Shown: positions 10,621 to 51,368 of the stretch, piece after piece
How positions within the stretch are numbered: position 1 is the stretch's first letter
Layout: every line of letters starts with the position of its first letter
From: Candidatus Omnitrophota bacterium
Lineage (GTDB): Bacteria; Omnitrophota; Gorgyraeia; Zapsychrales; Fredricksoniimonadaceae
Direction: 5' to 3'
NCBI GenBank assembly: GCA_028865345.1
Contig: JAGWKL010000003.1
Span: 184-64,183, forward strand
DNA: 64,000 nt
The notes under the pieces: generated by a model
What the model was told of the DNA's origin: nothing
Databases searched by the model: none
The model's input: only the letters and a program-made list of their open reading frames with translations
Position numbers and translations under genes: made by a program

Positions 10621-11400
10621 GTGTGGCGCAAAACTTTCAAAAAAGCCGCTTATATCGGCATCGTTGCCGTCCCCTTCCTGATCCTTTTTTTTCACCCGAA
10701 GAATTATAGGGCCGCCGGATTGTTAGACGCTGTTGCCGGGCCTGTGGATGCATGGCAGGGTCCTGTCTTCGAGTTGAAAAAATTGTTTTATTACAGGGAG
10801 ACGTATGATGAGTATGTGTATTTCAAAAGACAAAATGAAGTACTGAAAGCCAGGCTTACCGCGCTGCGGGAGGATGAAGAGGCCCGAAAACGTTATGATA
10901 AAATCCGGGATTTCCGCAATAGTCAAAGTTACGGGTCTATCGTGGCCGATGTCATCGGCCGGGACCCTTCTGATTGGAATGCGTCATTGATCATTGACCG
11001 CGGCCGCGCCGAGGGCCTCAAAGTGGGCCAGCCGGTGGTTAATCCGCTGGGGGTGGTGGGCAGGGTTTTTGAGACGGGCGAGCACACGGCCAAGGTGGTC
11101 TTGCTTTCCGATCCCACCTTTGCCGTTGCCGCGGTGGACCAGCGTTCAAGGGAAAACGGGCTTTTGACCGGCACGCTGGAAGGGAATTTACGCTTTGAAT
11201 ATTTGACGGACAAGGCGGACGTGAAGGTTGGGGATGTGCTGGTGACCTCCGGCTTAAGCACCGCCTTTCCGGAAGGGATATTGATCGGGCGTATTACCAA
11301 TGTGAGCGCCTCGGCCAACGTCCATAGCGTGGATTGCCTGGTAACGCCGGCGGTGGACCTTTCCCAGCTGGAAGAAGTAATTATTATTAAAAAGACATGA
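10621..11400 (+). CDS. mreC: Rod shape-determining protein MreC
   Basis: N-terminal TM segment, a coiled-coil stretch, then the MreC beta-domain region (GLVVGRV... pattern: PLGVVGRVFE). It lies immediately downstream of mreB. Confidence 0.85.
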   Translation: MWRKTFKKAAYIGIVAVPFLILFFHPKNYRAAGLLDAVAGPVDAWQGPVFELKKLFYYRETYDEYVYFKRQNEVLKARLTALREDEEARKRYDKIRDFRNSQSYGSIVADVIGRDPSDWNASLIIDRGRAEGLKVGQPVVNPLGVVGRVFETGEHTAKVVLLSDPTFAVAAVDQRSRENGLLTGTLEGNLRFEYLTDKADVKVGDVLVTSGLSTAFPEGILIGRITNVSASANVHSVDCLVTPAVDLSQLEEVIIIKKT

Positions 11401-20321: not shown

Positions 20322-23300
20322 ATGACTTTTTCATCCATCCGCCGTTCCTGGTATTCCCGTTATATTAGCTTATGTCTTATGGCCGCCTTTATAGGGACCA
20401 TGGTGATTACGCCTAAGGCTTATGCTCAGGAGGGGGTTTTGGGACTGCCCCAACCAGGGGCAATGGTGGATCTATCTCCCGCTTATGTGCCGCTCATGAT
20501 CACCGGTTTGACCGTGCATCCCCACAATCCTTTATTAATGGATTTTATTGTTAATACCGGCAACAGCGGCTTGGATGCCGCCCAGGTTAAAAAAGAATCC
20601 GGCCGCCTGATCAAATATTTTTTGGCCTGCCTCACCATTCCCGAGAACGATCAGTGGGTCAACCTTTCGCCGTATGAAAAAGACCGCATCATCCCCAAAG
20701 ATTTAGGGCAGACCGTATTGGGCCGGGATATGCTGGCCCAGGATTATATTTTGAAACAATTGACCGCGTCCATGATCTATCCGGAAAAGAATTTGGGAAG
20801 GAAATTTTGGAACGACGTTTACGCAAAGGCTCGTCAGATGTACGGCACCACCCAAATCCCGGTGAATACTTTTAATAAGGTATGGATTTTGCCGGAGTTT
20901 GCCCAAGTCTATGAACATGGCAACACCGTACTTGTCGTCAAGAGCCATCTCAAGGTCATGCTCGATCAGGATTATCTGGCTTTAAAACACCATGCGCAAG
21001 GGGTGAGCAGCACGGCCGAAGAATCCAAAGTCGATACGCTCGGAAGTCAAATCGTCCGCCAGGTCATTCTTCCGGCCATAGAACATGAAGTCAACACGGG
21101 CAGGAACTTCGCCCAAATGCGCCAGATCTATAATTCCATGATCCTGGCCGTCTGGTTTAAGGAGAATTTGAAGCAGGCCCTTCTCAACCAGGTCTATACG
21201 GACAGATCCAAGGTCAACGGCGTCAATGTGGCTGACCCGGCCATTAAAGAAAAGATATACAGGCAGTATCTTGAGGCCTATAAGAAGGGGGTATTCAACT
21301 ATATTAAGGAAGAGACCGACCCTAACAGCCAGGAGACCATCCCTCGTAAATATTTCTCCGGAGGGCTGACTCCGTTTGATGCCGCCATGCTTCATAAGGT
21401 GCCGGCAGAGGAAGCCGAGGCCGATCTTAGCGGCCAGCCTGGAAGAACTTTCGATCTCCTGAGTGAGGTCGGCAAGGTTCCGGGGAACGCGGCCCATCCC
21501 AACGCGGCGATGACGGTTTCTTTGAATAGGGGCTTAACAGAGGCATTGAATCAATTAGGCGTTTCAAATCAACTCAATGCGGTCCAGGGAATCATGGTGG
21601 ATGCCGTCAATGTTGAGGGGTTTTTGGGTAATTTGGATAAATTGTATGAGGGCAAGAAAAGTCCGGAAGCCATCAAAACCGCCCTCACCAATGTCGGGAT
21701 TCTGTCAAGAGACGGCACAAGCATTACCACAGAAATATTTGATCAAAACAATGCAGTGACGATGTTCAAATCCAGGTTGGGCGTCAAGGAAGTTTATGTC
21801 CTGAGCATTCAAAAAGCCATGGTGGATGCCATGGATGTGCCCCAATTTTTAAAATCATTTCCGGATGAACAGCAATCCACTGTTGCAGAGGCTTTAGTCA
21901 ACAACGGCGGAGACAACGGCATTTTTGAGGCGTTCAAGCCTTTTGTATCAACGCCCCAAACTTCCAACGCGGCCATGACATCGACTATTGAAAGCGCATG
22001 GCGACGGGCTGATGAGATGGGATTAAAGGGAGCGATTTTGTTGGAATTTGAAGAAGAACATCCCCGGGGAGGCGGAGACATTAATTTATTTGTCCCGGCC
22101 GTCCTTGCACCATTACATCAGGTGAAAGGGAAGCTGCTTTCCGGTTTTCCTCACGGCTCTGGTAAAGATGTTTATATTGATGGGACTCCCGGTTTTTCTC
22201 CCGATAATATTATTATGATCAAATGGAAGGATCTGGTTTATTTGGCCCCGCATCTAAAGCCCCAGGGGTTGTCGGCCATTTTGAGTTTTTTTCAGGCGCA
22301 ACACCAGGGATTGCCCCAAGCCAATGATTTGATAGAGATCGTACGGACCGATGCGGCAATGGCTGGCCAACCCAGCCGGCAGCTGGAAAATATTTTGTCG
22401 GAAAAAGTGACATCGGTCAAAGAAAGCATGCAGCCCCTGCTGGAGGCTTACGACGCGGCCAAGGCCCAAGGTCAGGCCGATAAGGTCAAAGGCATTGAAG
22501 GCGAAATCAACCAGATCGTCGACAAGGTCAATGTCTACGATCAATCCAACCCCGAAGATTTGGTCCTTTCTGATGATGTTCAATCCCTGGCAGGCTTCTT
22601 AAGCAGTCCCGATGTTCGGGTCTATCAGAATGAGGCCAGGCAGGATCTTTTAACGGGCGACTATGTGCCGCAATTTATTTTTGCCGGCGCGGCCACGCGC
22701 CTTAACCGTGGGCCGATGTATAACTTGGATATTTGGGACATAGCTGTGGAAATGGGTAAGGCCAAACCGGGAGATGCCAAGTCACATATGGGTATGGGGC
22801 CCCGCCAGATCATGGCTTACCGTTTGGCGTTGGAATCCCTGGCCCAGAAGAATGGGCTTCCGGTGCAGGAGGTTCTGGCCAGGCAGAAAATGATCGTTAA
22901 CGTGAATGCTGACGTTGAGCAGATTGTTCTGGACGATTTTCTCAAGAATGATTTCTACGGATTCGACCCGGACAATGTTTATTTCATCACCCAGCCGACC
23001 TTCCATGGTTATAAATTTGAAAACGGTCGTTTGGTGTTTGATCCGAAAAGCCCCACGGTGCCTTATGGTCATGGATATAATTTTATGCAATTGGGCCAGC
23101 CGGGGCAGGCGTATACATTGGGTCTCGACGGAAGCCGCCGCTATTTGAAAGGCAGTGTTTTGAGCCAGTTCCCTGATGATGCCCTCATTGGCAGCCATCG
23201 CATCAATGATTTGACCAAACTCTCCGAGGATTCCGTGGTCAGTGTGGATAAACTGGCTTTTGCGATCGCCAAATTTGAACAGGGCTTTGACGTGGTCGGG

Positions 23301-26018
23301 GAACTGGTCGATAACCCCAACAAGCAAAAAGGCGGGAATGTGTTGAAGAACAGGAAGACCGGCAAGAGCTTTCTGATTGAGACTTCGAATGTCAAAGGCA
23401 ACCCGGCGCTCATCAAGCTCCTGGATGAAGCTGGGAAGGTGGGCGCGCCGTATAATGCTTTCAGGCTGGTGTATAAGGTCGGAGGTTTAAAAAAGATCCT
23501 GCAGGAAAATTTGCCGTTTAACCTGAGGTTCAAGGATGGAGAGTTTTATTTGGAGGCGGTTACAGGTGATGTGACCCAAATGCCTGATACAAATGCCGTG
23601 TTCATGAACTCAGGGGAGCAGATACATGATTTTAAAGAGCCCAAGAATATGGACGATGCTCTCTATTATTTGAGGAAAAGCGACGATCAAATAGCTTCCG
23701 CTAATCCGGCGATGGTTACAGATGAATCCATTTTGTCCTGGCGCTCCCCGCACGGCCTGTCCTTGAGCCAGGTTTTGGACAAGATCATCAAGGAGTACGA
23801 TATCCGCGGATTTGACGGATATGGCGATCAGACGCAATATCCCCAGCAGATGGATGCCACGTTGCTGCGCTGGATCGGCCGGGCGTTGGGGATGGTGAAA
23901 TTTTATTCGGCGGCGCACGACAGGGAAGTCCAATTGAAGCCGGGGGACACCTTTGTTATCGGCGGCGACAATGGGCCGTCAACGGAGGAATTGGTAAAGA
24001 AGAATTTGATTAAAGGCTTGCGCGATGTGGGGATCAACGTGATCGACCTGGGCGTCACCAATTCCGGGCACACGTATAAGAGCATTAAAGAATTTGGGGC
24101 GCAGGGCGGCCTGTATGTTACGCGCAGTCATGTGGAGGTGGGGACCAACGGCGCAAAACCCATTATCGACGGCATTACCCTTTATGGTGAAATGCTTACG
24201 GCCATTAAAGGCCAAATCCTCAAGGCGGAGTACCGCAAGGCGCAGCGCGGGGAATTAATGACCGAACATGAGCCGGAAGCGGCAAGTTTGAGGGCCAGGG
24301 CAAAACAAGCCTATCTGGATTCATTGAAGCGGGATTACCGCGGATTGGCTGACCAGCTGTCGCAAATGGGATTGCGGGTGGCCGTTAATTTAAACAGCGG
24401 TTCCATGGCGGCAGATGCCGATTATCGCCAGGTGATCCGCGATATTCTCGGTGCGGGGAATATTGAAACCTTTCTTAAAGAGGAACCGGATGCGCTGGCC
24501 ACAAAGGGCCTGGCCGATCCGTCACGTGCCGACGAAAAAGCTTTGGCCCACAAGGAAGCCAATATTGTGGCCTACTCCGAAAACCATCCGGACGTTCCTG
24601 TTTTTAACTTTGACCTGGACGCGGACAGGGTGAGTATTTTATGGAACGGCCGGCTTTTCCTGGGGGATGAAATATTTTATCCCATCATTGAATACCAGTC
24701 GACCCTGGCGCCCTATGCGGATATCCTGAGAAATGAAGCGGGGTTTGCTTTTGATTCGCGGATGAAATCGGAAGTTTTTGAACTGGCGAAGCATTTTGGC
24801 GTAAAAGCCGGGCTGCACCCGAAGGGGCACTCAAAAGTGAAAGCCACCATGGATGTCATCCTGCGCCAGATCGCCTCCCAAAGAGGAATGACGGTGGCCA
24901 AATTTTTGAAAACACATCCCGGCTTCCGCATGGCCGAACCGGAGTATTCGCTTCATATGTTCCTTTCGAATTCCAGGGGGGAATCCTTGGATGATGCCCT
25001 GGATTTCATGTTTTTCTGGCTCAACGCGTGGGGAAAAGTTACAGAAGCAAAAGGCGATTCCCAGCTCACGCTTGCACAATACATTCAGAATTTAAAGGAT
25101 AAAGGCATTATTAACGATGCCAAGCAGGTGCCGGAACAGCGCATCCCCATTAATGAAGACGCCAAATTTGATTCGATGACAAAGATGAAAAATGCGGTGA
25201 TTGACTTTTTTGCGGGGCGGGATGATTTCGAATATATCAGCGATTACCGGGACTCCAGCAAGAGGTCAAAATCCTATGCGTTGGTCAATAATGACGGCGT
25301 GTTTCATTTGTATACCCCTTACGGCGAGGCTTTCTGGGGATGGTCAAACACTTCTCCGAAAGTGGCCATTGGCGTGCAAAGCGCCACGGAGGAATCCAAG
25401 AAGCGGTTGGCCCAAATCGTCACGGCCATGTATATTCATGCCCGCAACAGGGTCGCTGAGGATTTGCACATCAGCCTTCCCCAAATAGATCCGCTTGAAA
25501 CAAAGGCGCTTTATCAGCTTATGGGGGCATCATCTCCGGGCGAGTTGGAAGGCAAGATCCTTGAGAAATATCCGACCATGGAGGCCGCCTTAAGCGCAAT
25601 ACCCGATGCCGCGATGGCTGCAAGCAGTGCGGTCATTGGAGAAGAAACCGATTGGCTGCGGGCGATCAATTCTTCCGGCAGCAATGAGCAGCTTAAAGGA
25701 ATCACCAAACAGCTCTCCCGCAGCGGATTGCCGGAGCGTGAAATAGAAAAATTGATCCAGGCCGCCAATTTCAGGCGAAAACTCATCTTTAAGAATGAAA
25801 AGAATAAATACGGCTTGGGCAGATCTCAAGCCGAGCCCGGCGGTATCGACCTTAATTCCAGAACGCTGAACATGGAGAGTACGGGGCAAAAGGTGCACAT
25901 CACCTTTGACCCTGCCATGATCGCGCAATTCCGTCGCGGGGATTTTTCCGGCGTTAAAATCCAAATTCTCAACGTTGTTCCGATCCAGCTTGCGCCGTTA
26001 TTGGGTCTCAAACAATAG
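20322..26018 (+). CDS. Giant (1,898-aa) signal-peptide protein with internal phosphohexomutase-like and UDP-sugar-pyrophosphorylase-like regions
   Basis: One uninterrupted ORF with an AGGAG RBS and an N-terminal signal peptide (…AFIGTMVITPKAYA|QE). By eye, residues ~1120-1500 follow the phosphoglucomutase/phosphomannomutase motif order (DIRGFDG; VIGGDNGPS; GGLYVTRSHVEVGTNG in place of TASHNP; DLDADR in place of DGDGDR). Residues ~760-1100 have NTP-transferase/UDPGP-like loops (FAGAATRLNRG; PYGHGYNF). The rest is unassignable. Confidence 0.8.
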   Translation: MTFSSIRRSWYSRYISLCLMAAFIGTMVITPKAYAQEGVLGLPQPGAMVDLSPAYVPLMITGLTVHPHNPLLMDFIVNTGNSGLDAAQVKKESGRLIKYFLACLTIPENDQWVNLSPYEKDRIIPKDLGQTVLGRDMLAQDYILKQLTASMIYPEKNLGRKFWNDVYAKARQMYGTTQIPVNTFNKVWILPEFAQVYEHGNTVLVVKSHLKVMLDQDYLALKHHAQGVSSTAEESKVDTLGSQIVRQVILPAIEHEVNTGRNFAQMRQIYNSMILAVWFKENLKQALLNQVYTDRSKVNGVNVADPAIKEKIYRQYLEAYKKGVFNYIKEETDPNSQETIPRKYFSGGLTPFDAAMLHKVPAEEAEADLSGQPGRTFDLLSEVGKVPGNAAHPNAAMTVSLNRGLTEALNQLGVSNQLNAVQGIMVDAVNVEGFLGNLDKLYEGKKSPEAIKTALTNVGILSRDGTSITTEIFDQNNAVTMFKSRLGVKEVYVLSIQKAMVDAMDVPQFLKSFPDEQQSTVAEALVNNGGDNGIFEAFKPFVSTPQTSNAAMTSTIESAWRRADEMGLKGAILLEFEEEHPRGGGDINLFVPAVLAPLHQVKGKLLSGFPHGSGKDVYIDGTPGFSPDNIIMIKWKDLVYLAPHLKPQGLSAILSFFQAQHQGLPQANDLIEIVRTDAAMAGQPSRQLENILSEKVTSVKESMQPLLEAYDAAKAQGQADKVKGIEGEINQIVDKVNVYDQSNPEDLVLSDDVQSLAGFLSSPDVRVYQNEARQDLLTGDYVPQFIFAGAATRLNRGPMYNLDIWDIAVEMGKAKPGDAKSHMGMGPRQIMAYRLALESLAQKNGLPVQEVLARQKMIVNVNADVEQIVLDDFLKNDFYGFDPDNVYFITQPTFHGYKFENGRLVFDPKSPTVPYGHGYNFMQLGQPGQAYTLGLDGSRRYLKGSVLSQFPDDALIGSHRINDLTKLSEDSVVSVDKLAFAIAKFEQGFDVVGELVDNPNKQKGGNVLKNRKTGKSFLIETSNVKGNPALIKLLDEAGKVGAPYNAFRLVYKVGGLKKILQENLPFNLRFKDGEFYLEAVTGDVTQMPDTNAVFMNSGEQIHDFKEPKNMDDALYYLRKSDDQIASANPAMVTDESILSWRSPHGLSLSQVLDKIIKEYDIRGFDGYGDQTQYPQQMDATLLRWIGRALGMVKFYSAAHDREVQLKPGDTFVIGGDNGPSTEELVKKNLIKGLRDVGINVIDLGVTNSGHTYKSIKEFGAQGGLYVTRSHVEVGTNGAKPIIDGITLYGEMLTAIKGQILKAEYRKAQRGELMTEHEPEAASLRARAKQAYLDSLKRDYRGLADQLSQMGLRVAVNLNSGSMAADADYRQVIRDILGAGNIETFLKEEPDALATKGLADPSRADEKALAHKEANIVAYSENHPDVPVFNFDLDADRVSILWNGRLFLGDEIFYPIIEYQSTLAPYADILRNEAGFAFDSRMKSEVFELAKHFGVKAGLHPKGHSKVKATMDVILRQIASQRGMTVAKFLKTHPGFRMAEPEYSLHMFLSNSRGESLDDALDFMFFWLNAWGKVTEAKGDSQLTLAQYIQNLKDKGIINDAKQVPEQRIPINEDAKFDSMTKMKNAVIDFFAGRDDFEYISDYRDSSKRSKSYALVNNDGVFHLYTPYGEAFWGWSNTSPKVAIGVQSATEESKKRLAQIVTAMYIHARNRVAEDLHISLPQIDPLETKALYQLMGASSPGELEGKILEKYPTMEAALSAIPDAAMAASSAVIGEETDWLRAINSSGSNEQLKGITKQLSRSGLPEREIEKLIQAANFRRKLIFKNEKNKYGLGRSQAEPGGIDLNSRTLNMESTGQKVHITFDPAMIAQFRRGDFSGVKIQILNVVPIQLAPLLGLKQ

Positions 26019-37945: not shown

Positions 37946-38560
37946 ATGTTGAATAAAAATTTAGCTTTGGTGGTGATGGTGCTCTTTGCGGCCGGCTGCG
38001 GTTTGGAGGCCAGGACCTATGTGATGACCAAACCCCGTGTCGGCCTGAACCGCGGGACAGGCAACGGCGGTTGTGTCGTGGGCACATGCCCCCCGGCACC
38101 GGCACCCGCAGAGACGACCCGCAAGGTATATGTGCTGGAGATCACCAAGCCGGTCCCGGAATCCAAGGTCGAAAAAATAGAGGAGCAGGCGATCAACGCC
38201 ATCGCCCAAACCGCCCCCCAACCATCTTCCGAGACGGTCCCTGCAGCGCCGGCGCCGACGGTAAATACCCAAAGTTCCCAGCCTCAAGTAACGGTTCCGG
38301 TGATCGGGGAGAGGCCGGGTACGATTGCAACGACCCCGTCAACGCCCGCAGCGGCAACAACACCGGTAGAGCAAAATCACGGGAACCTGCAGCCTGCCTC
38401 TTATACGGTGCAAAAGGACGATACGCTGCAGAAAATTTCCAAGAAGGTTTATGGCACCTACAGCAAATGGTATAAAATTTACAAGGCCAACAAAGACAAA
38501 ATCAAGAATCCTAATGTCCTGCGGCCCGGTACGGTGCTGACTATTCCACCGGTAAAATAA
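37946..38560 (+). CDS. LysM-domain lipoprotein
   Basis: Lipobox LFAAGC, a Pro/Thr/Ala-rich linker and a C-terminal LysM (YTVQKDDTLQKISKKVYG...VLRPGTVLTIP). Confidence 0.75.
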   Translation: MLNKNLALVVMVLFAAGCGLEARTYVMTKPRVGLNRGTGNGGCVVGTCPPAPAPAETTRKVYVLEITKPVPESKVEKIEEQAINAIAQTAPQPSSETVPAAPAPTVNTQSSQPQVTVPVIGERPGTIATTPSTPAAATTPVEQNHGNLQPASYTVQKDDTLQKISKKVYGTYSKWYKIYKANKDKIKNPNVLRPGTVLTIPPVK

Positions 38561-41326: not shown

Positions 41327-41373
41327 GAGGATAAATTTTCTTGTTTTTGATATTCGGCCATAGTATTTCCCTC

Positions 41374-41486
41374 GCAGGCACGCTCGCCGCGTCCAGCGAC
41401 GCGGCTTCACTAGGGCCCGGGCCGATTTGTCGCCGCATGGAAAAAACGCAAGCGAACCATGCCAAATCGGCCCTCTACTGCCTGCT
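41374..41486. other. Multi-stem structured element (~113 nt)
   Basis: Perfect complementarity was seen directly, in a cloverleaf-like arrangement. The outer stem is GCAGGCA/TGCCTGC. Hairpin 1 is GCCGCGTC-CAGC-GACGCGGC (8 bp). Hairpin 2 is GGGCCGATTTG…CAAATCGGCCC (11 bp) with nested GCATGG/CCATGC. No family was assigned. Confidence 0.3.
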
Positions 41487-41516
41487 CGGAAAATACAATG
41501 GCCTCATATGCAATTC

Positions 41517-41754
41517 TTAAAGAGAGGAATTTATTATTTTTGCGACTGTAGCTTTTAGCCAAAGCAGCTCATGCTTCTGAGGGCATCCCTCGGCTTTTGG
41601 CCGAGGGATGGCTGAACTTGTTCGAGCCTTGAAGTTCTAGAGAACTTCAAGGCGAGTTGTTCAGCCACCGAAGAAGCATGAGATCTTTGGCGACCCCACC
41701 GTAGGCGGGGTAAAAGCGGTTCCAGGAGCAAAAATAATAAGTTCCTCTCTTAAG
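41517..41754. repeat. ~238-bp imperfect nested palindrome (MITE-like) with ~23-nt terminal inverted repeats and TTAA at both edges
   Basis: The termini are TTAAAGAGAGGAATTTATTATTTTTGC (left) and GCAAAAATAATAAGTTCCTCTCTTAAG (right). Internal arm matches are CTCATGCTTCT/AGAAGCATGAG and GGCTGAAC/GTTCAGCC. The central 13-bp perfect palindrome is GCCTTGAAGTTCT-AG-AGAACTTCAAGGC. The left arm carries an extra hairpin CATCCCTCGGC-TTTTG-GCCGAGGGATG. Confidence 0.5.
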
Positions 41755-41815
41755 AAAGTTTATTGATCGTCATTCGTGAACAAAAGGGACAAGATTCCTA
41801 TTCTATAGAAGTAAT

Positions 41816-42316
41816 ATGAAACGTATCATAGCCATAGCGCTTATCTCTTACTTCGCCTATGCCCTGGAATTCCTGCTGTACAATTTCTGGGGGCCGTGGG
41901 GCCGGTGGCTCAAGCCGGAGCTCATGCTCCTGGTGGTGATATTCTTTAACCTGTATTTGGGGATACGTTTCAGCATCATCGCCGCGCTTTTTTGCGGAAT
42001 ATTCAAGGACGCATCGGGGATAGCGCCCTTCGGGACATATCTGCTGGTTTACCTGTCGGCAAGTTACTTGACGACGTTCGTGCGGCGGTATTTGTACGAA
42101 CCCGGTTCAAGGTTTTCCAGGATCGTCGTCGTTTTTTGCGTTGTCGTGGGGTGTTTTATCGTGCAGACCGTCCTGGCAAACATGGGCCGACAGGTCGCTT
42201 TGGGCCCCTCGCTCGTCTACATTTTAGTTCCGCAGCTGTTGACAACGCTTGCCGCTGCCACCTATGTTTTTGCGCAGTTAAAAAATATCAGCGTGTTTTT
42301 CACATTAAAGGGTTAG
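41816..42316 (+). CDS. mreD: Rod shape-determining protein MreD
   Basis: 166-aa polytopic membrane protein immediately upstream of PBP2. Hydrophobic profile and size fit MreD, but the family is weakly conserved. Confidence 0.7.
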   Translation: MKRIIAIALISYFAYALEFLLYNFWGPWGRWLKPELMLLVVIFFNLYLGIRFSIIAALFCGIFKDASGIAPFGTYLLVYLSASYLTTFVRRYLYEPGSRFSRIVVVFCVVVGCFIVQTVLANMGRQVALGPSLVYILVPQLLTTLAAATYVFAQLKNISVFFTLKG

Positions 42317-42317
42317 G

Positions 42318-44030
42318 ATGCGCCTCAATATCATTCAATCCGTTGTTTTTTTCCTGCTGGGGGCGATCATCTGTAGTTTGTTTTATATGCAGATCATCCA
42401 TGGCGCCTATTGGCGCCGCCAGAGCACGAATAATCGCATCCGTATCGTGCCTGTCGACGGACCGCGGGGAAGGATCCTGGACCGTCATGGGACCGTTTTG
42501 GCCGATGACCGGGTGGCATTTGAGGTGGGGGTCATTCCCCAGGACATCGAGGATCAAGGGGCTTTATTCGGTTATTTAGGAAGCGTGCTTCATCAAGACC
42601 CCCAATCCCTGGAGCGCCGCTTCGGGCGTGAAAAACAGGCCCCTTTCGCGCCTGTCATTCTGGCGGAGGATGTCCCGCGTCAGCTCGCCATCAAGATCGA
42701 GGAGGAAAAATTTGTTTATCCGGGGCTGATCGTCCAGCAGGGCTTCGAACGTTACTATCCTTTTCATGACATCGGCGCGCATGTGCTGGGTTATGTGGGC
42801 AAAATCAGCAAAGATGAGATTGCCGAAAACCATTCCTACGGTTATACGCCTTTAAGCCGGGTGGGGAAAACAGGCATTGAAGAAGAGTACGAACCGTTTT
42901 TAAAAGGACATCCGGGGGGCCGTCAGATCGAGGTCAACAGCCGCGGCCGGCAGGTGCGCCTCCTGGGCCTCAAGGATCCGTCGGCTGGAAACGACGTGGT
43001 GCTGACCGTGGATGCGCGCCTGCAGGCGGCGGCCCAGGAATTGTTAAGCGGACAGCGCGGCGGTATAGTGGTCATGAATTTAAACACCGGAGAATTGTTG
43101 TCTTTGGTCAGCTCGCCTTCCTATGACCCGAATGTTTTTTTGGACAAGACCAGGTCCGGCGAGCTGCGTTCCTATTTGAATGATCCCCTGACGCCTTTGT
43201 TTGACCGTGTGACTTGCGGCCTTTACCCGCCGGGTTCGGTGTTCAAGGTCCCGGAAGCCCTGGCCGCCATCCAGCTTCACAAGATCACGCCCCAGACGAC
43301 CTTTTTCTGTCCGGGGTACATGTTGGTGGGCAAGAGAAAATTTCATTGCGCGGAAGTGCACGGGGTGCAGGACCTGCAAGAGGCCATTGCGCATTCCTGT
43401 AATGTTTATTTTTTCCATGTCGGCCTGCTGCTCCAACCGCACCTCATCGGCGCATTTGAGAAAGCTTTCGGGCTCACTCGTCCCACAGGAATAGACCTGC
43501 CTTACGAGGCCAGGGGCCATATGGTGACCAAGGCATCAAGGGGCAGGCCGTGGTATACGGGGGATGTGCTGAATTTGTCCATCGGCCAGGGGTATACGCT
43601 GGTGACGCCTCTGGAATTGACGGTGATGATGGCGGCGGTCGCCGATGACGGCATCGTTTTGCAGCCCCGCCTTGTCCGGCAGATAGGCGGCCGTCTGCTT
43701 ATACCGGAAGATCTGTCCAAAAGGCCATTGATCAAGCTGCGCAAGCAAACATGGCAGATCGTGCAACAGGGACTTAGAGCCTGCATTGATGATCCGACGG
43801 GAACATGCCGTGACCTGGCAGCGGTGCCGGGTCTGGATATTTACGGTAAAACAGGCACCGCTCAAACTGTTTACGGTAAGCCCAATGACGCATGGTTCGT
43901 GGGCTATACGCGGTCTGCCAAAGCAGGCATCGCTATCTGCGTTTTTCTGGAATACGGAGGGTCGTCCGAGAATGCCGTCAAAATTGCCCGGGATCTGCTT
44001 TTAAAACTTCAAACCCTCAAGGTCATATGA
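42318..44030 (+). CDS. mrdA: Penicillin-binding protein 2 (peptidoglycan D,D-transpeptidase)
   Basis: N-terminal TM segment, PBP dimerisation domain and a transpeptidase domain with SxxK (SVFK), SxN (SCN) and KTG (KTGTA) motifs. Confidence 0.9.
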   Translation: MRLNIIQSVVFFLLGAIICSLFYMQIIHGAYWRRQSTNNRIRIVPVDGPRGRILDRHGTVLADDRVAFEVGVIPQDIEDQGALFGYLGSVLHQDPQSLERRFGREKQAPFAPVILAEDVPRQLAIKIEEEKFVYPGLIVQQGFERYYPFHDIGAHVLGYVGKISKDEIAENHSYGYTPLSRVGKTGIEEEYEPFLKGHPGGRQIEVNSRGRQVRLLGLKDPSAGNDVVLTVDARLQAAAQELLSGQRGGIVVMNLNTGELLSLVSSPSYDPNVFLDKTRSGELRSYLNDPLTPLFDRVTCGLYPPGSVFKVPEALAAIQLHKITPQTTFFCPGYMLVGKRKFHCAEVHGVQDLQEAIAHSCNVYFFHVGLLLQPHLIGAFEKAFGLTRPTGIDLPYEARGHMVTKASRGRPWYTGDVLNLSIGQGYTLVTPLELTVMMAAVADDGIVLQPRLVRQIGGRLLIPEDLSKRPLIKLRKQTWQIVQQGLRACIDDPTGTCRDLAAVPGLDIYGKTGTAQTVYGKPNDAWFVGYTRSAKAGIAICVFLEYGGSSENAVKIARDLLLKLQTLKVI

Positions 44031-44113
44031 TCCTGTGGGATAAACGTGCTCTCAAAATAGGGGAGAAAATAGTGGATGGGTCTTACAGGTATGGTAAAAT
44101 ATTTTTACAAAAT

Positions 44114-46921
44114 ATGATAAAAATATTTTTAGGAGTATTTATACTATTCCTTTTTCCACCGGCCGGGAACGTCCTTGTTTTTGCCGGCCAACCCGCATCC
44201 GATTCGAACGGTCAATCTCTCACACCGACGGAAACAGCCCAACAGACCAAGGCCCATGAGTATTATGAAAAGGGCATGAAGCTGATCAACGAAGGCAAAC
44301 CCGACGAGGCGAGTCAATATTTTGAAAAGGCCATCCAGTTGGCCCAAACTCTGCAACAACCGAACATCAAGCAGCCTTCCCGGCAGCAAGCCGCCGTTTC
44401 GCCTAAAGCCGCGACCGTGCCTGTTCTGACTAAGCCCGAGGAAGGTCAAAAGACACAACAGCAACAGCAACAACAGCAACAGCAGGCAGAGAAGCGGCGC
44501 CGGCAACAAGAGGCTCTGCGCCAACAGGAATTCGAGGCAAAAAGACGTCAACAGATGGAGGCGCTTCAACAGCAGTATGTGCAGGCCATCAGATTATATA
44601 AGAAGAAAGAAATGGACAAAGCTTTAGGGGCATTCAAGGAGATTGAAAATTCATATCCTGATTTTAAGAGGACGACGGGATACATAGAGCGCATTGAGCG
44701 CTGGCAGGCGGAGCGCAAAGAGCTGGCAGAGAGGCGCCAGATGGCGCTGGAACTGAAAGCCAGGAACGATCAGGCTTCCAAAATATATGACACGGCCCTG
44801 CGTTCATACCGTGCCCGTCAATGGCAGGCGGCCGGCGCCCAATTCGAATCTGTGGCGCAGATAATTCCGGATTATAAACATACCCAATGGTATTTGAAAA
44901 AGATCGGAATTTTTATGGCCAGGGAAGCGGCCCGGCCGTCGTCTCCCTCGCCGGTCGAGGGCAGCCCCAAGCCCGCTGCGGCACCGGTCAAACCCAAGTT
45001 GACGTCTGCCCCCGCACCGGTTGTGCCTGTGGTCAAGACGGCGGTTGATTCCCTGGAGGACCAGCAAAAACAAGCCCGGGACATTGCGGCTTTGGCCCAA
45101 GAATCATCCATGCTTTATCATCAGATCGCCGACATTGCCGACGATAAGTCGACCATCCAAACAAAGGCCAAAATGGCCCAGGTTGATGAGATCCTGAACG
45201 GTTTAAAAGCGAATAAGGAACGCCTTTATCAAGAAGACCTCGCTTCCGAAGTTGAAAAATTCTACCAGCAGGGCCGGGATTATTTGGGTTCCCATGATTA
45301 TGCGAACGCTAAAATCAAATTCATGGAAGTGGAGCATATCTGGCCCGATTATAGAGACACCCGCCGTAATTTGGGCCGCATTGATGAAGCCTTAAAGAAA
45401 CAAAGCGTCGAGGCCATCACCGGGCGGGAACGGGCACGGGCGGAGCAGTTTGAGAAAATGCAGTATCAGGAAATCGCCGCGCAATTACGGCGTGATGAAT
45501 TAGAGCAGGAAAATGAGCTGCGCCTGGCCCGGCAGCAGCAGGATTCTTTAAAAGAACTTGCCCGAAAAGCTTCCGATATCAATGATGACATCATCCGTCT
45601 CTCACGGGCCCAGGATTATGAAGGCATGAAAAGGAAGTTCGTCCAATTACAGGGCACTATTGATGCCTTGACGCAGCTTAAAGCGCAGATGGCCATGCAA
45701 CAAGGCAAAATAGAACGCGCCAAACAACTGAGCCGGGACGCCATCCGACGCCGTGATGAATTGATGAGGGAAGCAAAACAGGAGAACGGTCAAATTTCGG
45801 GGAGCACGAAAAGCTCATATCATCAAAAGGAGCTTTCTGGATTTTTGCTTTCCAACCGGCCCACCAGAGCGGATATTTACAAACGCCGCGAGATCATGCG
45901 GGAGCAGAACGCCCTATTTGATGAAGCCGTTGAATGTTATGCCCGCCGTCAATATGCTCAGGCCAAACTTCTTTTTGGCGAGTTGGCCAGTCAGCATGAC
46001 CGCAGGTCCGAGGCCTGGCTTAAAAAAGTGGACCGGGCCATTACCCGGGAGCTCCTTAAAGGCCAGGAAGCGCAAGTTCGGGAACGGACGGCATTTTTAG
46101 AGGACCAGTTGAAAGCCCAGCGCCAACTGGCTGTGGTCCAGGAGCGCGAACGCCGGCACCAAAAGAAATTGACCGAAGAGTTGGAACGCCAGAAGCGCGC
46201 TTACGAAGACAACCGTTTGATGCAATGGCGGAAACAAGAGATGCTCGAGGCCCAGGTTCTTGAACGCCGGCGCCAGGAAGAAAAGCATGCCCAATGGGAA
46301 AAAGAGAAGGCAAAAGAAGAGAGAGAGTTCCGTTTCCGTAGAATAACAAATGCGGCAAAGCCGGCCGCAATAAGCTCTAAGGCCGGGGCGCAAGCTCGAA
46401 GTACCCTATCTAAAGCGAAGCTTGCTGCTGTTTCGCATGCCGCAACTGTTGAGGTCAAGCCTAAACCTGCTGTTGCCAAACCCAAACCTGTTGCGGTCAA
46501 GCCTAAACCTGTTGCGGCCAAGCTTAAACCTGTTGCGGCCAAGCCTAAACTTGTTGCGGCCAAACCCAAACCTGCTGCTGTCAAATCCAAACCTGTTGTT
46601 GTGCATGCTGCTTCGCTTGAGGTCCGGCGTGAAGAGCTCCGTAAGCAATTACAGCATGGGGTTGAGTCCCTTTATCAGGGGGCCTTAAGTTTATACCGGG
46701 CAGGAGATTATGCCCAAGCCGCGAACAGATTCAAAGATGTTGATGAAATATTCCCCGGCTATAAAAATACCAGAGAATATATGGACAAGGCCCGCCGGAA
46801 GTCTTCGGCCGTAAACTCTGAGGCTCCCGCGAACCCCCATGTGTCCGGGAATTCAACATCGAATAACCGCCAGGGTTATATTTCCAGAGCGTTGGATTTA
46901 TTTGATACGAATGACCAATAA
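44114..46921 (+). CDS. Secreted repeat protein: poly-Q tract, charged coiled-coil segments, six dispersed TPR-like motifs, C-terminal KPKPVAA tandem repeats
   Basis: The ATG at 44114 gives a signal peptide ([24 protein letters not shown]). The ORF-track start at 43892 overlaps mrdA. The recurring motif is Y-x2-G/A-x3-Y-x4-Y-x2-A-x3-F-x8-PDYK(D/N)T-x2-YL (e.g. [29 protein letters not shown]). ER/Q-rich heptad regions lie between copies. Confidence 0.6.
44457..44486 (+). repeat. (CAR)10 trinucleotide repeat encoding Q10
   Basis: caacagcaacagcaacaacagcaacagcag, seen directly. Confidence 0.9.
46457..46603 (+). repeat. Seven tandem 21-bp units (AAGCCTAAACCTGTTGCGGCC-like) encoding (KPKPVAA)7
   Basis: Seven head-to-tail units of 21 bp each, with 0-4 substitutions per unit. 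They also create the spurious alternate-frame ORF 46422..46688. Confidence 0.9.
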
Positions 46922-48980
46922 TTCCAACCATCTTATCGACGAAAAAAGTCCCTACCTTCTGCAGCATGCCCATAATCCCGTTGATTGGTATCCTTGGGGT
47001 CAGGCCGCTTTTGACAAGGCCAAACACGAAAATAAGCCGGTCCTGTTGTCCATAGGATATTCCACATGCCACTGGTGCCATGTGATGGCCCATGAAAGTT
47101 TCGAGGACGAAACGGTCGCCCAAATCATCAACGATCATTTTGTCGCCGTCAAGGTGGACCGCGAAGAACGCCCGGACATTGACCATATTTACATGACGGC
47201 TGTCACAGCCATGACGGCCCAAGGCGGATGGCCTTTGACGGTTTTTTTGACCCCGCAGGGCGAACCGTTTTACGGAGGGACGTATTTCCCGCCGTATGCC
47301 AAATGGGGGAGTACCGGTTTTATCGATCTGCTCCATTCGATCGCGGCGGCATGGGACAAGGACCGCGGCAATATTTTGTCTTCCGGACGTTCCATCGTCG
47401 ACGAGCTTCGGCGACGCGTTTCCGTAGTCTCATCGGGTGCGGTGGCGGACAAGATTTTATTGGACCGGGCCTTTGAGCAGATGAAAAATCAGTTTGACGC
47501 CCTCAACGGGGGGTTTGGAGCGGCCCCCAAATTTCCGATGGGGCATAATTTATCATTTTTATTGCGTTATGGCAAATCAACCCGGACGCCGGAAGCGTTG
47601 GATATGGCAGGCAAAACCTTGACGGCCGTGGCCCATGGAGGCATCGGGGACCATTTGGGCGGCGGATTCCACCGCTACTCAACGGATCCGCATTGGCATT
47701 TGCCGCATTTTGAAAAAATGTTATACGACCAGGCCCTGCTGTCAAGGGCGTATTTGGAGGGCTATCAAGCCACAGGTTCGGCGGAATATGCAAAGACGGC
47801 GCGGGAGGTCCTCGATTATGTGCTGAGGGACATGACGGATGAGGGAGGCGGTTTTTATTCCGCCGAGGATGCCGATAGCCTGCAGGAGGGACATTTAAAG
47901 GAAGGGGCCTTTTATGTCTTTACGCAGGCGGAGATCGTTGAGGCTTTGGGGCGCGACGGCGCCGAGGTCTTTAATTATTGCTATGGCGTCGAACCTGATG
48001 GTAACGCCCGTTTTGACCCCCACGGTGAATTTAAGGGAAAGAACATATTATATCTTGCCCACTCCATTCCAGAGGCGGCGGATAAATTTCACGGGCACAG
48101 CGATGAAATTCAGAGTATGCTTATGGAAGGAAGACAAAAGTTATGGGCCTTGCGTAACCGTCGCGGCCATCGTCCGCACAGGGATGATAAAATATTGTGC
48201 GATTGGAACGGTTTGATGATGGCAAGCTTTGCCTTGGCCGGCCGGGTTTTAAATGAGCCAAGGTATGCCCGGGCCGCCTCAAGGGCCGCTGATTTTATTT
48301 TGACCCATCTGATGACTGCCGGTTGCGCCCAAGAACCGTGCGGGCGGCTTTTGCACCGCTGGCGTGACGGCCAGGCAGGGATTACGGCGACCCTTGACGA
48401 TTATGCGTTTCTTATTTACGGCCTCCTGGAAGTGTATGAGGCGGCCTTTGATGAAAAATATCTGGGTACGGCCCGGCATTTGGCAGATGAGATGATCAGG
48501 CTTTTTGCCGACGACGCCGGAGGTTTTTTTATGACGGCCGTTGACGCAGAAGCTTTGATTATGCGGCCGAAGGACATGTATGACGGAGCTTTGCCATCAG
48601 GAAATTCAGTCGCCGCCCTGGATTTGCTGAAGTTGTATGCTTTGAACGGAGGAGAAATTTATAACTCCCGGGCTCGGGATTTATTCACCTGCGCGCAGCC
48701 TCTTTTGTCTCAGACACCTTGGGCTTATAGTTTTTTATTGTCCGCCCTGGGTTGGTATCTGGAGGGGCCTTTGGAGATCACGTTCCAAGGCCGTCGCAAT
48801 GATACAACCATTGCCGGAATGCTGGAAATATTGTATAAATACTTTATACCTTATAAAGTCGTTAAGTATGTTTCGGACCAATCTCGGCCGCCGCAGGCTC
48901 TTATTTGCTGCCGGGGCGCATGCCGTCCGCCGGTCAACAGTATCGATGCTTTTGAGGAGTTAATATGCTTATTCAAATAG
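46911..48980 (+). CDS. Thioredoxin-domain protein of the DUF255/YyaL family (thioredoxin-like N-terminus plus alpha/alpha-toroid domain)
   Basis: N-terminal [47 protein letters not shown] is the DUF255 hallmark. The ATG at 46911 overlaps the upstream stop by 11 nt. Confidence 0.85.
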
Positions 48981-49897
48981 CTTTCTTCTGTCTGCTGATT
49001 GTGGCGCTGTTGGCCGGGGTCTTCAGCTATTTCCCGCAATTGCACAGGACCATCCGTCCCTTGAAATTTGCCATGGACAGTATCGGGTATACGGGTGTAG
49101 AGACACTCAATAAAAAAAGGTCCCAACAGATCAATGTGGCGGTCAAGAGCGGTCTTATGGATATCCACAAGCGGATGGATGCTGTTGCCGTGGAACAGGA
49201 CAGGCTTTTGGATGCGCTGACGGACCAACAGGCTGTATTGCAAGAAGCCAACAGGGACGCCCAGACAGTATTGCTTGAGGCCAAGAAAGCAGGCAGAAAG
49301 GGGGATAAAGACATCTTGCAGCTTGAAGCGCTTGCCTCCCAAATGAACGATCAGCAGCGTCTCCTGGTGGCCCATGGCCAATACCTGGTCTCACTCAACG
49401 ATCAATTGACAAAAAGCAGGGAGAGGCTTGCGCAGCAAGCTGACATAGCAAATATGGATGCCCAATCCTCCCTGGATTCAATCCGCCAGAATTATGCATC
49501 TTTTGAAAGCCAGGCTTCCGAGTTATTTAATAAGGTGGATGAATATAACCGGGAGCTCAGACAGGGGGTCGGAAAAATGCAGGAACAGATTTCTGGCATA
49601 AGTAATCCCTCTTATGGCAGCTATGCCCATGACATGGCTCAGGAACGTATCCAGAGCTTGCTGGATAAAGAGCAGGAAGATATGGCGAGAGTGGCCGACT
49701 GCCAGCAAAGAAATTTGGACCTGGCACAAGAGGCCCGGGAAAAACTGGCCGATTCCCGGGAGAGATCAGAGGACCTCGAGCGGCGTGACCGGGACTTGAT
49801 CGACGAGGAACACCAAAAACAAGAAGACCAACAGTCCATGATCCGGCAGCGCATGGCCGATGAACAACAGCGCATGCAGGACCAACAAAACCGGTAA
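48965..49897 (+). CDS. Membrane-anchored long coiled-coil protein (hypothetical)
   Basis: N-terminal TM segment ([16 protein letters not shown]), then ~280 aa of Q/E/R/L-rich heptad sequence. Confidence 0.5.
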
Positions 49898-49910
49898 TTT
49901 TCCCCTTTTC

Positions 49911-51368
49911 ATGAAGATCATCAGAACCATTCTCGTTAGCCTGTTGGCGTTGATGCTGGTCGCCGCCACCGTTCTTTTTATATTCTTTCAGACTTTTGAC
50001 GCAGACCAGTATTTTCCCCGAATGGCCCCAAAAGCATCAAGGGCATTGGGGCGGACGGTGGTCTTGGGGCATATGGGGCTGGGGTTGTCTTTACGGGGCA
50101 TTACCGTCGACGCAGGACCTGTGACTGTGGCGGACGACCCCGGATTTACAACACAACCGTTCATTGAGGTCAAGAGGGTCCGTATCGGCCTTAACTGGTG
50201 GGCTCTCATAGCCCGTCGGAAAATCCAAATTACAACCATCCTCCTGCAGTCGCCGCAGATCCATTTTATCATTAATGAGCAGGGGGATGTCAATGTTCAT
50301 AGTTTTGCTCAGAATGGCGTCTTATCGGGTGGCGAGGAATGGATGTTAAGGAGCGCACGGTACCGGCACAAGGGGCAGCCTATTGGGGAATCACCGTTGA
50401 AGCGGGCTTTTGGGTTGCCCTCGCGTCCCAAGGAGCACCTTAACATCCATTCCGAGCCAAGCCCCGCTGCGTCGCCAATTTCTATAGAAATACGGGACGC
50501 TTCCATTTCTTTAATCGACCAAAATCCTTATGTGCCCCTGGATATTTGGCTGGAAGGTGTCGATGCCGATGTGAAGGGTTTTTCTTTCTCTGCTCCATTT
50601 GTTTTGTCCTTCGGCGGCTGTTTTTACAGGAATGCCCCCAATGTCCATGCCCGAGCTCAGATGTATTTTGATGCCCTCCGGAAAACTTTCAACATCACTA
50701 ACCTGCAATTGGCAGCCGATCTCTCCAGGCTTCAGGCCGATAGGCTCGACGGTATTTCTCCGGGAACGCCGGGAACAGCCGTTCTTAAAAACATCACCGG
50801 GAAACTGGGGCTGGACATGGGCCATCTGGATTTTAGCCCTACCGCGGGGGTTTACGCCGATGGCCATATCACCGTCACCGACGGGGTATTAAAGGGGTTC
50901 AATATCATTAAATTTCTTTTTTCCCGGTTCCTGGGTAATTTTATAGGAGGCAATATCGAAGCTCTTTTTAAACGTCAAAGCCAGCTGACCGCGCCCGATA
51001 CCGTCATTCAAAGAGCCGTTGTTCAGTTTTCCTATCGCCGGGGCACCCTGTTCATCGATGATTTTCTTGCCCAAACCAATATTTTTGAATTGAACGCCAA
51101 AGGTTTGCTTATGCCGGGATGGAATGCAGACATGCAGACCGTGTTGCATTTGGACCGGAATGTTTCCGAGGGGCTGATCGGTGAGTTTCATGGATTAAAG
51201 CGCCTGGAGGACACAAGTCAGCGCGTCGTCATAAACGCGAGCCTCAAAGGGACCATCCCTCATTTAAAATACAAGCCGGACAAGGATTTCAGAAAAGAAA
51301 GCAGAAAAGCGCTGATGGAAGAAGGCGGCAATATTTTAGGCGCCTTATTGGGCGCTCGCGGGCTGTGA
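49911..51368 (+). CDS. AsmA-family protein (envelope biogenesis / inter-membrane lipid transport family)
   Basis: The internal ATG at 49911 gives an N-terminal TM anchor (MKIIRTILVSLLALMLVAATVLFIFF) followed by a beta-rich repetitive sequence typical of the AsmA-like N-terminal region. The assignment is by overall pattern. Confidence 0.55.
   Translation: MKIIRTILVSLLALMLVAATVLFIFFQTFDADQYFPRMAPKASRALGRTVVLGHMGLGLSLRGITVDAGPVTVADDPGFTTQPFIEVKRVRIGLNWWALIARRKIQITTILLQSPQIHFIINEQGDVNVHSFAQNGVLSGGEEWMLRSARYRHKGQPIGESPLKRAFGLPSRPKEHLNIHSEPSPAASPISIEIRDASISLIDQNPYVPLDIWLEGVDADVKGFSFSAPFVLSFGGCFYRNAPNVHARAQMYFDALRKTFNITNLQLAADLSRLQADRLDGISPGTPGTAVLKNITGKLGLDMGHLDFSPTAGVYADGHITVTDGVLKGFNIIKFLFSRFLGNFIGGNIEALFKRQSQLTAPDTVIQRAVVQFSYRRGTLFIDDFLAQTNIFELNAKGLLMPGWNADMQTVLHLDRNVSEGLIGEFHGLKRLEDTSQRVVINASLKGTIPHLKYKPDKDFRKESRKALMEEGGNILGALLGARGL

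Follow-up and report, generated by a model that had tools for sequence, protein, structure and literature searches.

Exported proteins with helical segments and tetratricopeptide repeats (TPRs) are known, as are proteins that form long helical rods. CpoB (YbgF, 'TolA-binding protein') has about 260 amino acids, in which one N-terminal trimeric coiled coil precedes a contiguous TPR array, and its gene belongs to the tol-pal cluster; the lipoprotein BamD (YfiO) contains five TPRs in direct succession. Spectrin and EzrA, both cytoplasmic, consist of three-helix bundles of about 106 amino acids joined by continuous helices, and the single alpha-helix (SAH) domains rich in glutamate, arginine and lysine (ER/K) belong mostly to eukaryotic cytoplasmic proteins and are devoid of TPR-like joints. 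Here we describe a gene, referred to as X, located in a 64,000-nucleotide stretch of DNA (the window) from a Candidatus Omnitrophota bacterium (assembly GCA_028865345.1, contig JAGWKL010000003.1, positions 184 to 64,183). X (44114..46921, forward strand, as are all features of the window given below) is a complete gene for a secreted all-alpha repeat protein of 935 amino acids, as judged from its open reading frame (ORF), its translation and its homologues. It is a real gene under selection, whose product is all-helical and has no detectable catalytic domain, and it represents a new arrangement of the known TPR motif, outside all curated families. Our leading interpretation, which we hold tentatively, is that the product is an exported, non-enzymatic structural protein, a segmented alpha-helical rod that would serve the cell envelope as a spacer, tether or scaffold.

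The architecture predicted from the sequence and the model is as follows. Behind the signal peptide come long and highly charged helices of 47-111 residues, and between these helices lies a TPR-like three-helix joint of 48 amino acids, in which helix A is the end of the incoming long helix, helix B has 14 residues and is followed by a P-D-Y-K-x-T loop, and helix C is the start of the outgoing long helix. Three Pro-rich disordered hinges part the rods, and the chain ends in a short, strongly conserved peptide with the motif ALDLFD. Since helices A and C are expected to be parallel in a TPR-like joint, going by the predicted secondary structure and by TPR precedent, successive long helices would run in the same direction. 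This would produce stiff rods, roughly 10-20 nm in length, with flexible hinges between them, and the protein could act in the periplasm or elsewhere in the envelope. Docking sites may be provided by the TPR-like joints and by the C-terminal peptide, and the cationic hinge with its (KPKPVAA)n array may be an adjustable linker that possibly binds polyanions. X would be co-transcribed with envelope genes, and its partners would be the neighbouring DUF255 gene and an AsmA-like membrane protein. The first-pass annotation of this DNA had also read X, in general terms, as an extracytoplasmic repeat scaffold, and this fits the signal peptide, the all-alpha model and the unmatched architecture reported here.

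The open frame of X spans 43892-46921 and the ATG at 44114 yields 935 amino acids and a stop codon. This ATG is the start favoured by the homologues, the full-length relatives of which share the N-terminal n-h-c pattern, and it lies 83 nucleotides past the stop codon of mrdA, which ends at 44030. The overlap of the start region with the 3' end of mrdA that had first been claimed is thus confined to the upstream open frame and to a second possible ATG, at 44027, which forms an ATGA together with the stop codon of mrdA, while the accompanying description of a signal-peptide protein of about 935 amino acids holds. The predicted Sec-type signal peptide occupies amino acids 1-24 (44114..44185) and is followed by GQP; in the homologues the n-h-c pattern ends in AFA-D(Q/E)P. 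The signal peptide is without cysteine, and therefore X is not expected to be a lipoprotein. X has a single, N-terminal hydrophobic segment, and whether this is cleaved or retained as an N-in anchor, the bulk of the protein would be outside the cytoplasm. The n-h-c region shared by the homologues supports a Sec-type signal peptide, and the sequence indicates that X is exported. When X was scanned with Pfam and NCBIfam, no anchoring or secretion signal besides Sec was recognised, be it a lipobox, a sortase motif, PEP-CTERM or a type IX secretion system C-terminal domain, and X passed the cutoff of no curated family model. No enzyme or other non-TPR domain was detected by Pfam in X or in five long relatives, nor by NCBIfam in X.

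The joints are represented in the sequence by a repeated unit. A hidden Markov model (HMM) of the unit, built from units of other proteins, recovered five units in X at 41-61 bits (aa 152-197, 220-264, 379-425, 597-641 and 850-895), the maximum score in 200 shuffles of X being 10.6 bits. We delimit these as unit 1 (aa 150-197; 44561..44704; 51.2 bits), unit 2 (aa 220-266; 44771..44911; 55.8 bits), unit 3 (aa 379-426; 45248..45391; 57.1 bits), unit 4 (aa 597-642; 45902..46039; 40.8 bits) and unit 5 (aa 849-896; 46658..46801; 61.2 bits). The predicted local distance difference test (pLDDT) of the AlphaFold2 model is above 90 in units 1 and 2, 91-94 in unit 3 and 90-92 in unit 5. The motif P(D/G)(Y/F)(K/R)xT is found in four of the five; unit 4 has QHDRRSEAW at this place and is a variant without the PDYK loop, a form that is kept in orthologues. 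A degenerate unit is located at about aa 498-514, and a canonical N-terminal TPR hairpin at aa 47-80 (44252..44353), with 25.6 bits to Pfam TPR_2 (cutoff 27), further matches to TPR_1 and TPR_8 and a pLDDT of 83-90. Of the six TPR-like copies of about 40 amino acids initially listed for X, five therefore stand as strong units with a length of 48 amino acids, and the sixth is this canonical TPR.

The consensus of the 48-residue unit, EAEKLYQEAVDLYKSKKYAEAKEKFLEVEKIIPDYKSTRRYLKRIDQD, shows the TPR residue pattern, with aromatic residues and alanine in helix A, alanine and phenylalanine in helix B and proline after helix B. The unit profile matched designed consensus TPRs (E 3.7e-9), and single units matched TPR_2 (18 of 44), PF13525 (YfiO; 12 of 44) and TPR_6 (10 of 44) below the gathering score. 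Because the profile matches TPRs and the single units match TPR_2, YfiO and TPR_6 beneath threshold, the unit is best described, at the level of sequence, as one TPR hairpin together with the start of the following helix. Its sequence pattern, its profile matches and the modelled helix A-B-C joint, with pLDDT above 90, place it in the TPR superfamily. A contiguous, stacking TPR domain of at least three adjacent repeats is absent from X: the spacing from unit to unit is 59-128 amino acids or more and never 34, and helix or hinge segments of 22 to about 200 residues lie between the units. TPR units spaced singly between rods had been called atypical, and the all-alpha model, for which we found no solved structure of like architecture, bears this out.

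These similarities also bear on whether X might be the Omnitrophota orthologue of CpoB or BamD, which we regard as highly improbable. Several homologues of X are automatically named 'TolA-binding protein' or 'BamD' by JGI, and the best natural match of the unit profile in the Protein Data Bank (PDB) is the TPR domain of YbgF/CpoB (2xev, E 2.7e-7), next to weak matches to BamD chains (E about 0.05-0.3). The N-terminal TPR of X scores 27.7 bits with the NCBIfam BamD model TIGR03302, against a cutoff of 81.4, and the YfiO model PF13525 gives 20.3 against 25, about 35 residues being matched. All of this similarity is at the level of single units and below the curated cutoffs, which is also where the relationship to CpoB and other TPR families raised in the first-pass annotation ends. 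No match of X to CpoB (tol_pal_ybgF) or TolA_bind_tri was obtained at E<=0.1 with NCBIfam and Pfam, and no tol or pal gene was found among the scanned ORFs of the window or in 15 related loci. X also has no contiguous TPR array or lipobox, and its 935 amino acids compare with about 250 for CpoB or BamD. Orthology is thus contradicted by the family membership tests, and the names given to these homologues are over-calls.

The arrangement of helices and hinges around the units was obtained from AlphaFold2. With the family alignment, full-length X was predicted to be wholly helical, with a mean pLDDT of 70.7 and a predicted template modelling score (pTM) of 0.29, in view of which only local features are to be trusted; a second model, of the best-conserved fragment (aa 305-590), reached a pTM of 0.37, so that global confidence was not improved. 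The pLDDT is above 90 in the units, 80-90 in the long helices and below 50 in the hinges, and the fragment model agrees. Each unit follows the order incoming long-helix end, 14-residue helix B, PDYK loop and outgoing long-helix start, as in unit 1. Long helices are predicted at aa 111-163, 187-233, 345-392, 416-498, 502-563 and 630-740, and disorder (pLDDT below 50) at aa 83-111, 276-312, 558-584, 741-829 and 903-921.

Read from the N-terminus, the first TPR is followed by a P/Q-rich disordered linker (44354..44482; pLDDT below 50 for aa 83-111) that ends in the Q10 tract noted in the first-pass annotation (aa 114-123), which is encoded by CAA/CAG repeats at 44455-44484 according to Tandem Repeats Finder (TRF). 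A Pro-rich, putatively flexible hinge at aa 267-312 (44912..45049) is marked by its composition and by a pLDDT below 50 at aa 276-312, and several homologues have P/A/V-rich segments at this position. It leads into a conserved non-repeat helical segment (aa 313-378; 45050..45247) that contains QIADIADD, forms a block in alignments A2, A3 and A4 and is modelled as helices at aa 313-338 and 345-392. Two long and strongly conserved helices, aa 416-498 and 502-563 (45392..45802; pLDDT 83-89), meet at the degenerate unit, and the best a/d occupancy of aa 416-563 is 0.88; because of this occupancy and of the junction at the degenerate unit, they may form an antiparallel coiled-coil hairpin. The ER/K-rich helix at 46040..46333 makes up, together with helix C of unit 4, a helix of 111 residues (aa 630-740; pLDDT 80-87) that would measure about 16 nm if straight. 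It is 50% charged, with 15 i/i+4 and 18 i/i+3 opposite-charge pairs and a best a/d occupancy of 0.62, and it looks like an ER/K single helix in that E, K and R abound, i/i+4 charge pairs are present and a hydrophobic seam is missing. Of the long ER/Q-rich heptad segments originally described for X, aa 416-563 can thus be retained and helix 630-740 cannot. The last large hinge is an A/K/P-rich disordered segment (46334..46600; pLDDT below 50) with the tandem array at 46446-46598, where TRF finds 7.3 copies of a 21-nucleotide period with 81% matches, encoding KPKPVAA-type heptads in agreement with the (KPKPVAA)7 array reported earlier. The array recalls the (KP)n tract of TonB.

Foldseek searches of the PDB with the full model and with the aa 305-590 fragment gave no match at E<=0.001; the top matches were TPR proteins, and the top TM-scores were 0.06-0.28 (0.06-0.2 for TPR domains). 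Judged from the model, no solved structure shares the whole architecture of X. Across the family, the 1,166 intervals between units cluster at 63, 77, 88, 92, 99 and 128 amino acids, 99 being the commonest, and a periodogram of the 841 short spacings has its maximum (R 0.52) at a period of 3.6 residues, the phase being 0.5 turn; an unbroken helix from each joint to the next would give such a pattern. We regard this periodicity as suggestive. A heptad (7-residue) quantisation of unit spacing was also considered and set aside, its signal being weaker than that at 3.6 residues.

Several observations weigh against the interpretation of X as an envelope rod or limit how far it can be taken. The global arrangement in both AlphaFold2 models is unreliable, and the parallel course of helices A and C and the length of the rods are deduced from predicted secondary structure and TPR precedent. 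With every distinct spacing entered a single time, the 3.6-residue signal falls to an R of 0.21-0.24 against a null mean of 0.245 and is non-significant. The long helices may each be a single helix or part of a coiled coil, and the sequence is compatible with either a periplasmic or a surface/extracellular location. The DUF255 protein, the translationally coupled neighbour of X and thereby its closest genetic link, is without a signal peptide and probably cytoplasmic. Polyanion binding is ruled out as a family-wide property by the net charge, which ranges from -21 to +43 among orthologues.

X belongs to a sizeable family with members known to date from Omnitrophota only, of which we found no description in the literature. 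It is 98% identical to a hypothetical protein (P0001) of a Candidatus Omnitrophica metagenome-assembled genome (MAG), and a word-indexed search returned 31 further relatives of 750-1,500 amino acids at 25-55% identity. An exhaustive profile search of 1.84 billion cluster representatives matched 513 of them at E<=1e-10, including 224 at E<=1e-30; the listed relatives have 169-2,406 amino acids, the longer ones contain 4-23 units, and a signal peptide is present in nearly all of those that are complete. The one named relative is from Candidatus Zapsychrus exili, also of the Omnitrophota. Among species-representative genomes (GTDB), a 10-sequence alignment found close relatives in only four, two of them labelled Omnitrophota and two 'uncultured Planctomycetales'.

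Conservation within the family extends beyond the units. Non-repeat blocks, including the ER-rich block after unit 4, are common to the orthologues, and the C-terminus carries a conserved peptide, S(K/R)ALDLFD(P/T)N(A/D)(K/Q)-COOH (46868..46918), which always ends four residues before the stop. The codons of this peptide vary synonymously, which argues for selection at the protein level. The ALDLFD peptide is limited to close orthologues and occurs once per locus, at the C-terminus of X only, in 10 loci and the window (8 distinct after duplicates); the idea of a sorting signal common to several proteins was rejected because the peptide is present on X alone, once per locus. The KP array is lineage-specific, other homologues having plain P/A/V-rich linkers in its place, and it differs from that of the 98%-identical P0001 by an exact indel of two units (14 amino acids, 42 nucleotides), P0001 having fewer; this is either a copy-number polymorphism between strains or a repeat collapse in one of the assemblies. 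The variation in hinge length and in KP copy number fits a spacer whose length drifts. X is also the fastest-evolving gene of its block, with 24-55% identity between the window and loci L001-L016, compared with 48-72% for DUF255, 69-74% for PBP2, 83-91% for ilvB and 63-100% for a 141-amino-acid ORF.

The gene neighbourhood was compared across fifteen distinct loci, including the window, the upstream neighbour of one of them (L014) being left unclassed. The conserved linkage of X is to the downstream DUF255 and AsmA-like genes and not to mrdA. A DUF255 gene, an AsmA-like gene or both are found 3' of X in 14 of the 15 loci, the exception being a paralogue (P0026); DUF255 adjoins X in 13 loci and the AsmA-like gene is present in 13. 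In the window, the DUF255/Thioredox_DsbH gene (46911..48980; Pfam PF03190, E 1.3e-77) encodes the CxxC motif CHWC, and its likely start ATG (MTNNSNHL) lies within the last codons of X, giving an overlap of 11 nucleotides (46911-46921). This overlap of start and stop, AATGCCAAATAA, is kept in most of the related loci, which indicates translational coupling of X and DUF255. The next gene (48965..49897) encodes a protein of 310 amino acids with an N-terminal transmembrane helix and a Q/E/R-rich helical remainder, without a family match in Pfam or NCBIfam; in most loci a gene for 90-324 amino acids holds this position between DUF255 and the AsmA-like gene. The AsmA-like protein itself (49860..51368; Pfam AsmA, E 2.5e-15) has an N-terminal membrane anchor.

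On its upstream side, X lies directly downstream of mreD (41816-42316; TIGR03426, 44 bits) and mrdA, the gene for PBP2 (42318-44030; TIGR03423, 536 bits), as initially annotated. From this adjacency, at the place where rodA usually follows mrdA, a link to the elongation machinery had been suggested, and X could accordingly be imagined as assisting or regulating the elongasome, as a partner of PBP2 or MreCD that takes its place next to mrdA. TPR-containing periplasmic proteins such as CpoB and LpoA regulate peptidoglycan synthases. The three genes mreD, mrdA and X are tightly spaced on one strand, the gap before X being 83 nucleotides here and 20-70 in relatives, and a scan for promoters and terminators found nothing convincing between mrdA and X. 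The order recurs in five of the fifteen loci (the window, L002/L003/L048, L006/L010, L008 and L011), although X is only 34-55% identical among them. Linkage to mrdA is missing in the other ten, by which the suggestion fails the criterion of refutation that had been set for it, and in a rough neighbour-joining (NJ) tree the mrdA-adjacent loci are derived. The mre genes are moreover dispersed in this genome, with mreB (9540-10613) and mreC (10621-11400) about 30 kb upstream of mreD-mrdA, so that gene order near mrdA is weak evidence, and Pfam and NCBIfam scans revealed no similarity of X to RodA, MreC, LpoA or full-length CpoB. The position of X beside mrdA is thus a lineage-specific accident of gene order and gives no basis for inferring an elongasome function; such a role is decidedly unlikely. 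No gene of the rodA/FtsW family was present among the scanned ORFs of at least 150 amino acids in the window, and X itself was rejected as a RodA/SEDS protein, having one hydrophobic segment and no FtsW_RodA_SpoVE match.

A commoner upstream neighbour is a giant ORF of 2,362-8,064 amino acids, which precedes X in 7 of the 15 loci (L001/L062, L005, L007, L009, L013, L015 and L016) and ends between 8 nucleotides inside X and 134 nucleotides before its start; unrelated genes are found in two loci (L004 and L012). This raises the main rival explanation, somewhat unlikely in our view, in which X is a surface or extracellular fibre, stalk or anchor that works with the product of the giant ORF and might help to fasten these very small cells to a host or to prey; in that case the order seen in the window, with mrdA next to X, would be a secondary rearrangement. 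Pfam CLIPPER/DUF11 matches were recorded in three of the seven giant ORFs, and CLIPPER/DUF11 is an intramolecular isopeptide domain (bioRxiv 10.1101/2025.04.25.650565). The sole complete example of a giant protein, that of L005, has a signal peptide, and the giant-adjacent order is both in the majority and basal in the NJ tree. The paralogue P0026 also follows a giant ORF, without DUF255 or AsmA, and the fast evolution and variable length of X are frequent features of surface proteins. Set against this, X has no recognised secretion or anchoring signal besides Sec, and the lineage of the window has X without an adjacent giant gene, tblastn finding no homologue of the L005 giant protein in the window. 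The adjacency could also be a mere operon boundary, and a study of giant genes in Omnitrophota makes no mention of the X family (10.1101/2023.11.21.568195).

Locus L013 (GCA_041643075.1, contig JBGGHH010000614.1, 1-10418) and L015 come from the same assembly, and one MAG thus holds two family members. One is in the usual locus, where X comes after an ORF of at least 2,656 amino acids with a CLIPPER domain and directly before the AsmA-like gene, DUF255 being missing; the other, the paralogue P0026 of 805 amino acids, comes after the 8,064-amino-acid ORF and a small antitoxin-like gene and lacks both DUF255 and AsmA as neighbours. The window does contain a long ORF of 1,898 amino acids (20322-26018), in which the sole Pfam signal is PGM_PMM_I, weakly matched at aa 1201-1304, and which is unrelated to the giant ORFs that precede X elsewhere.

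Taking the envelope rod as our preferred reading of X, a more specific and bolder version can be formulated, which we consider unlikely as a whole. X and its relatives would be a new class of exported, spectrin-like rods, made of ER/K segments and of TPR-like joints placed at half-integer helical-turn spacings. They would act as an envelope ruler or tether in ultra-small Omnitrophota, where they might fix or span the distance for the AsmA-like lipid-transport protein encoded with them or anchor the giant product, and the number of modules (4-23) and the length of the hinges would tune their reach. The family reaches 23 modules in a phylum of very small and partly host-dependent bacteria, the envelopes of which are almost unstudied, and its pairing with an AsmA-like gene and frequently with a giant ORF makes it a concrete candidate for a role in organising or spanning the envelope.

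Two further observations concern the DNA upstream of mrdA. A gene at 37946-38560, whose LysM-domain product begins like a lipoprotein (LFAAGC) and has a long linker rich in Pro, Thr and Ala, heads the phoH-HD-ybeY-mreD-mrdA block and is kept in L002 and L006. Independently of X, the 490-nucleotide gap between ybeY and mreD (41327-41815), in which no ORF exceeds 59 amino acids, contains a conserved, structured non-coding element of about 230 nucleotides (41530-41745). It is also found in L002 (16191-16419), in L001 (17192-17420, reverse strand) and in L017-L062, and it is 81-82% identical to intergenic DNA of a relative whose X is only about 36% identical. The element folds into a long rod with an apical Y, with minimum free energies of -94.6 and -92.5 kcal/mol on the two strands and z-scores of -8.6 and -9.9 against shuffled sequence. 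A 31-nucleotide core pattern occurs in 46 metagenome contigs, normally as a single copy; the surrounding genes vary, as does the orientation. RNAalifold applied to 35 sequences gave 51 pairs, with compensatory double changes in 23. A search of Rfam gave no match. The element is a candidate for a new structured RNA of Omnitrophota, perhaps 6S-like, or for a palindromic element acting at the DNA level.

How X relates to the known systems can then be summarised as follows. Like CpoB, X appears to be Sec-exported and to combine a helical or coiled-coil part with TPR hairpins of the BamD/YbgF type; unlike CpoB, it has units that stand alone within long helices, in a protein more than three times as long, and its genomic context is not that of tol-pal. 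X resembles BamD in its units, which are similar to the first TPR hairpin of that protein, but X lacks the lipobox cysteine, the signal peptides of the homologues ending in AFA-D, its score lies far under the cutoff of the BamD model, and its architecture differs. With TonB and TolA, X shares extended Lys-Pro-rich or Ala/Lys-rich segments of the kind that serve as linkers in exported envelope proteins; it differs in having no TonB or TolA domains and no such anchor, and in that its KP array is lineage-specific. The ER/K spacers of SAH proteins are matched by helix 630-740 and by the inter-unit linkers, which are 40-50% charged, with dense i/i+4 pairs and few hydrophobic residues at the a/d positions. 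With the spectrin repeats of spectrin and EzrA, X appears to have in common a three-helix joint, a continuous helix between repeats and a period of about 100 residues, and by this analogy it may work like a spectrin-type rod, even though no similarity to spectrin or EzrA was found by sequence or by Foldseek. Its helix B of 14 residues, its long and mostly unbundled helices, its TPR-like joints and its predicted export set it apart from both. If this interpretation is true, X would be a bacterial, exported counterpart of the spectrin and SAH rods, with a joint derived from the TPR, and as such unmatched among solved structures.

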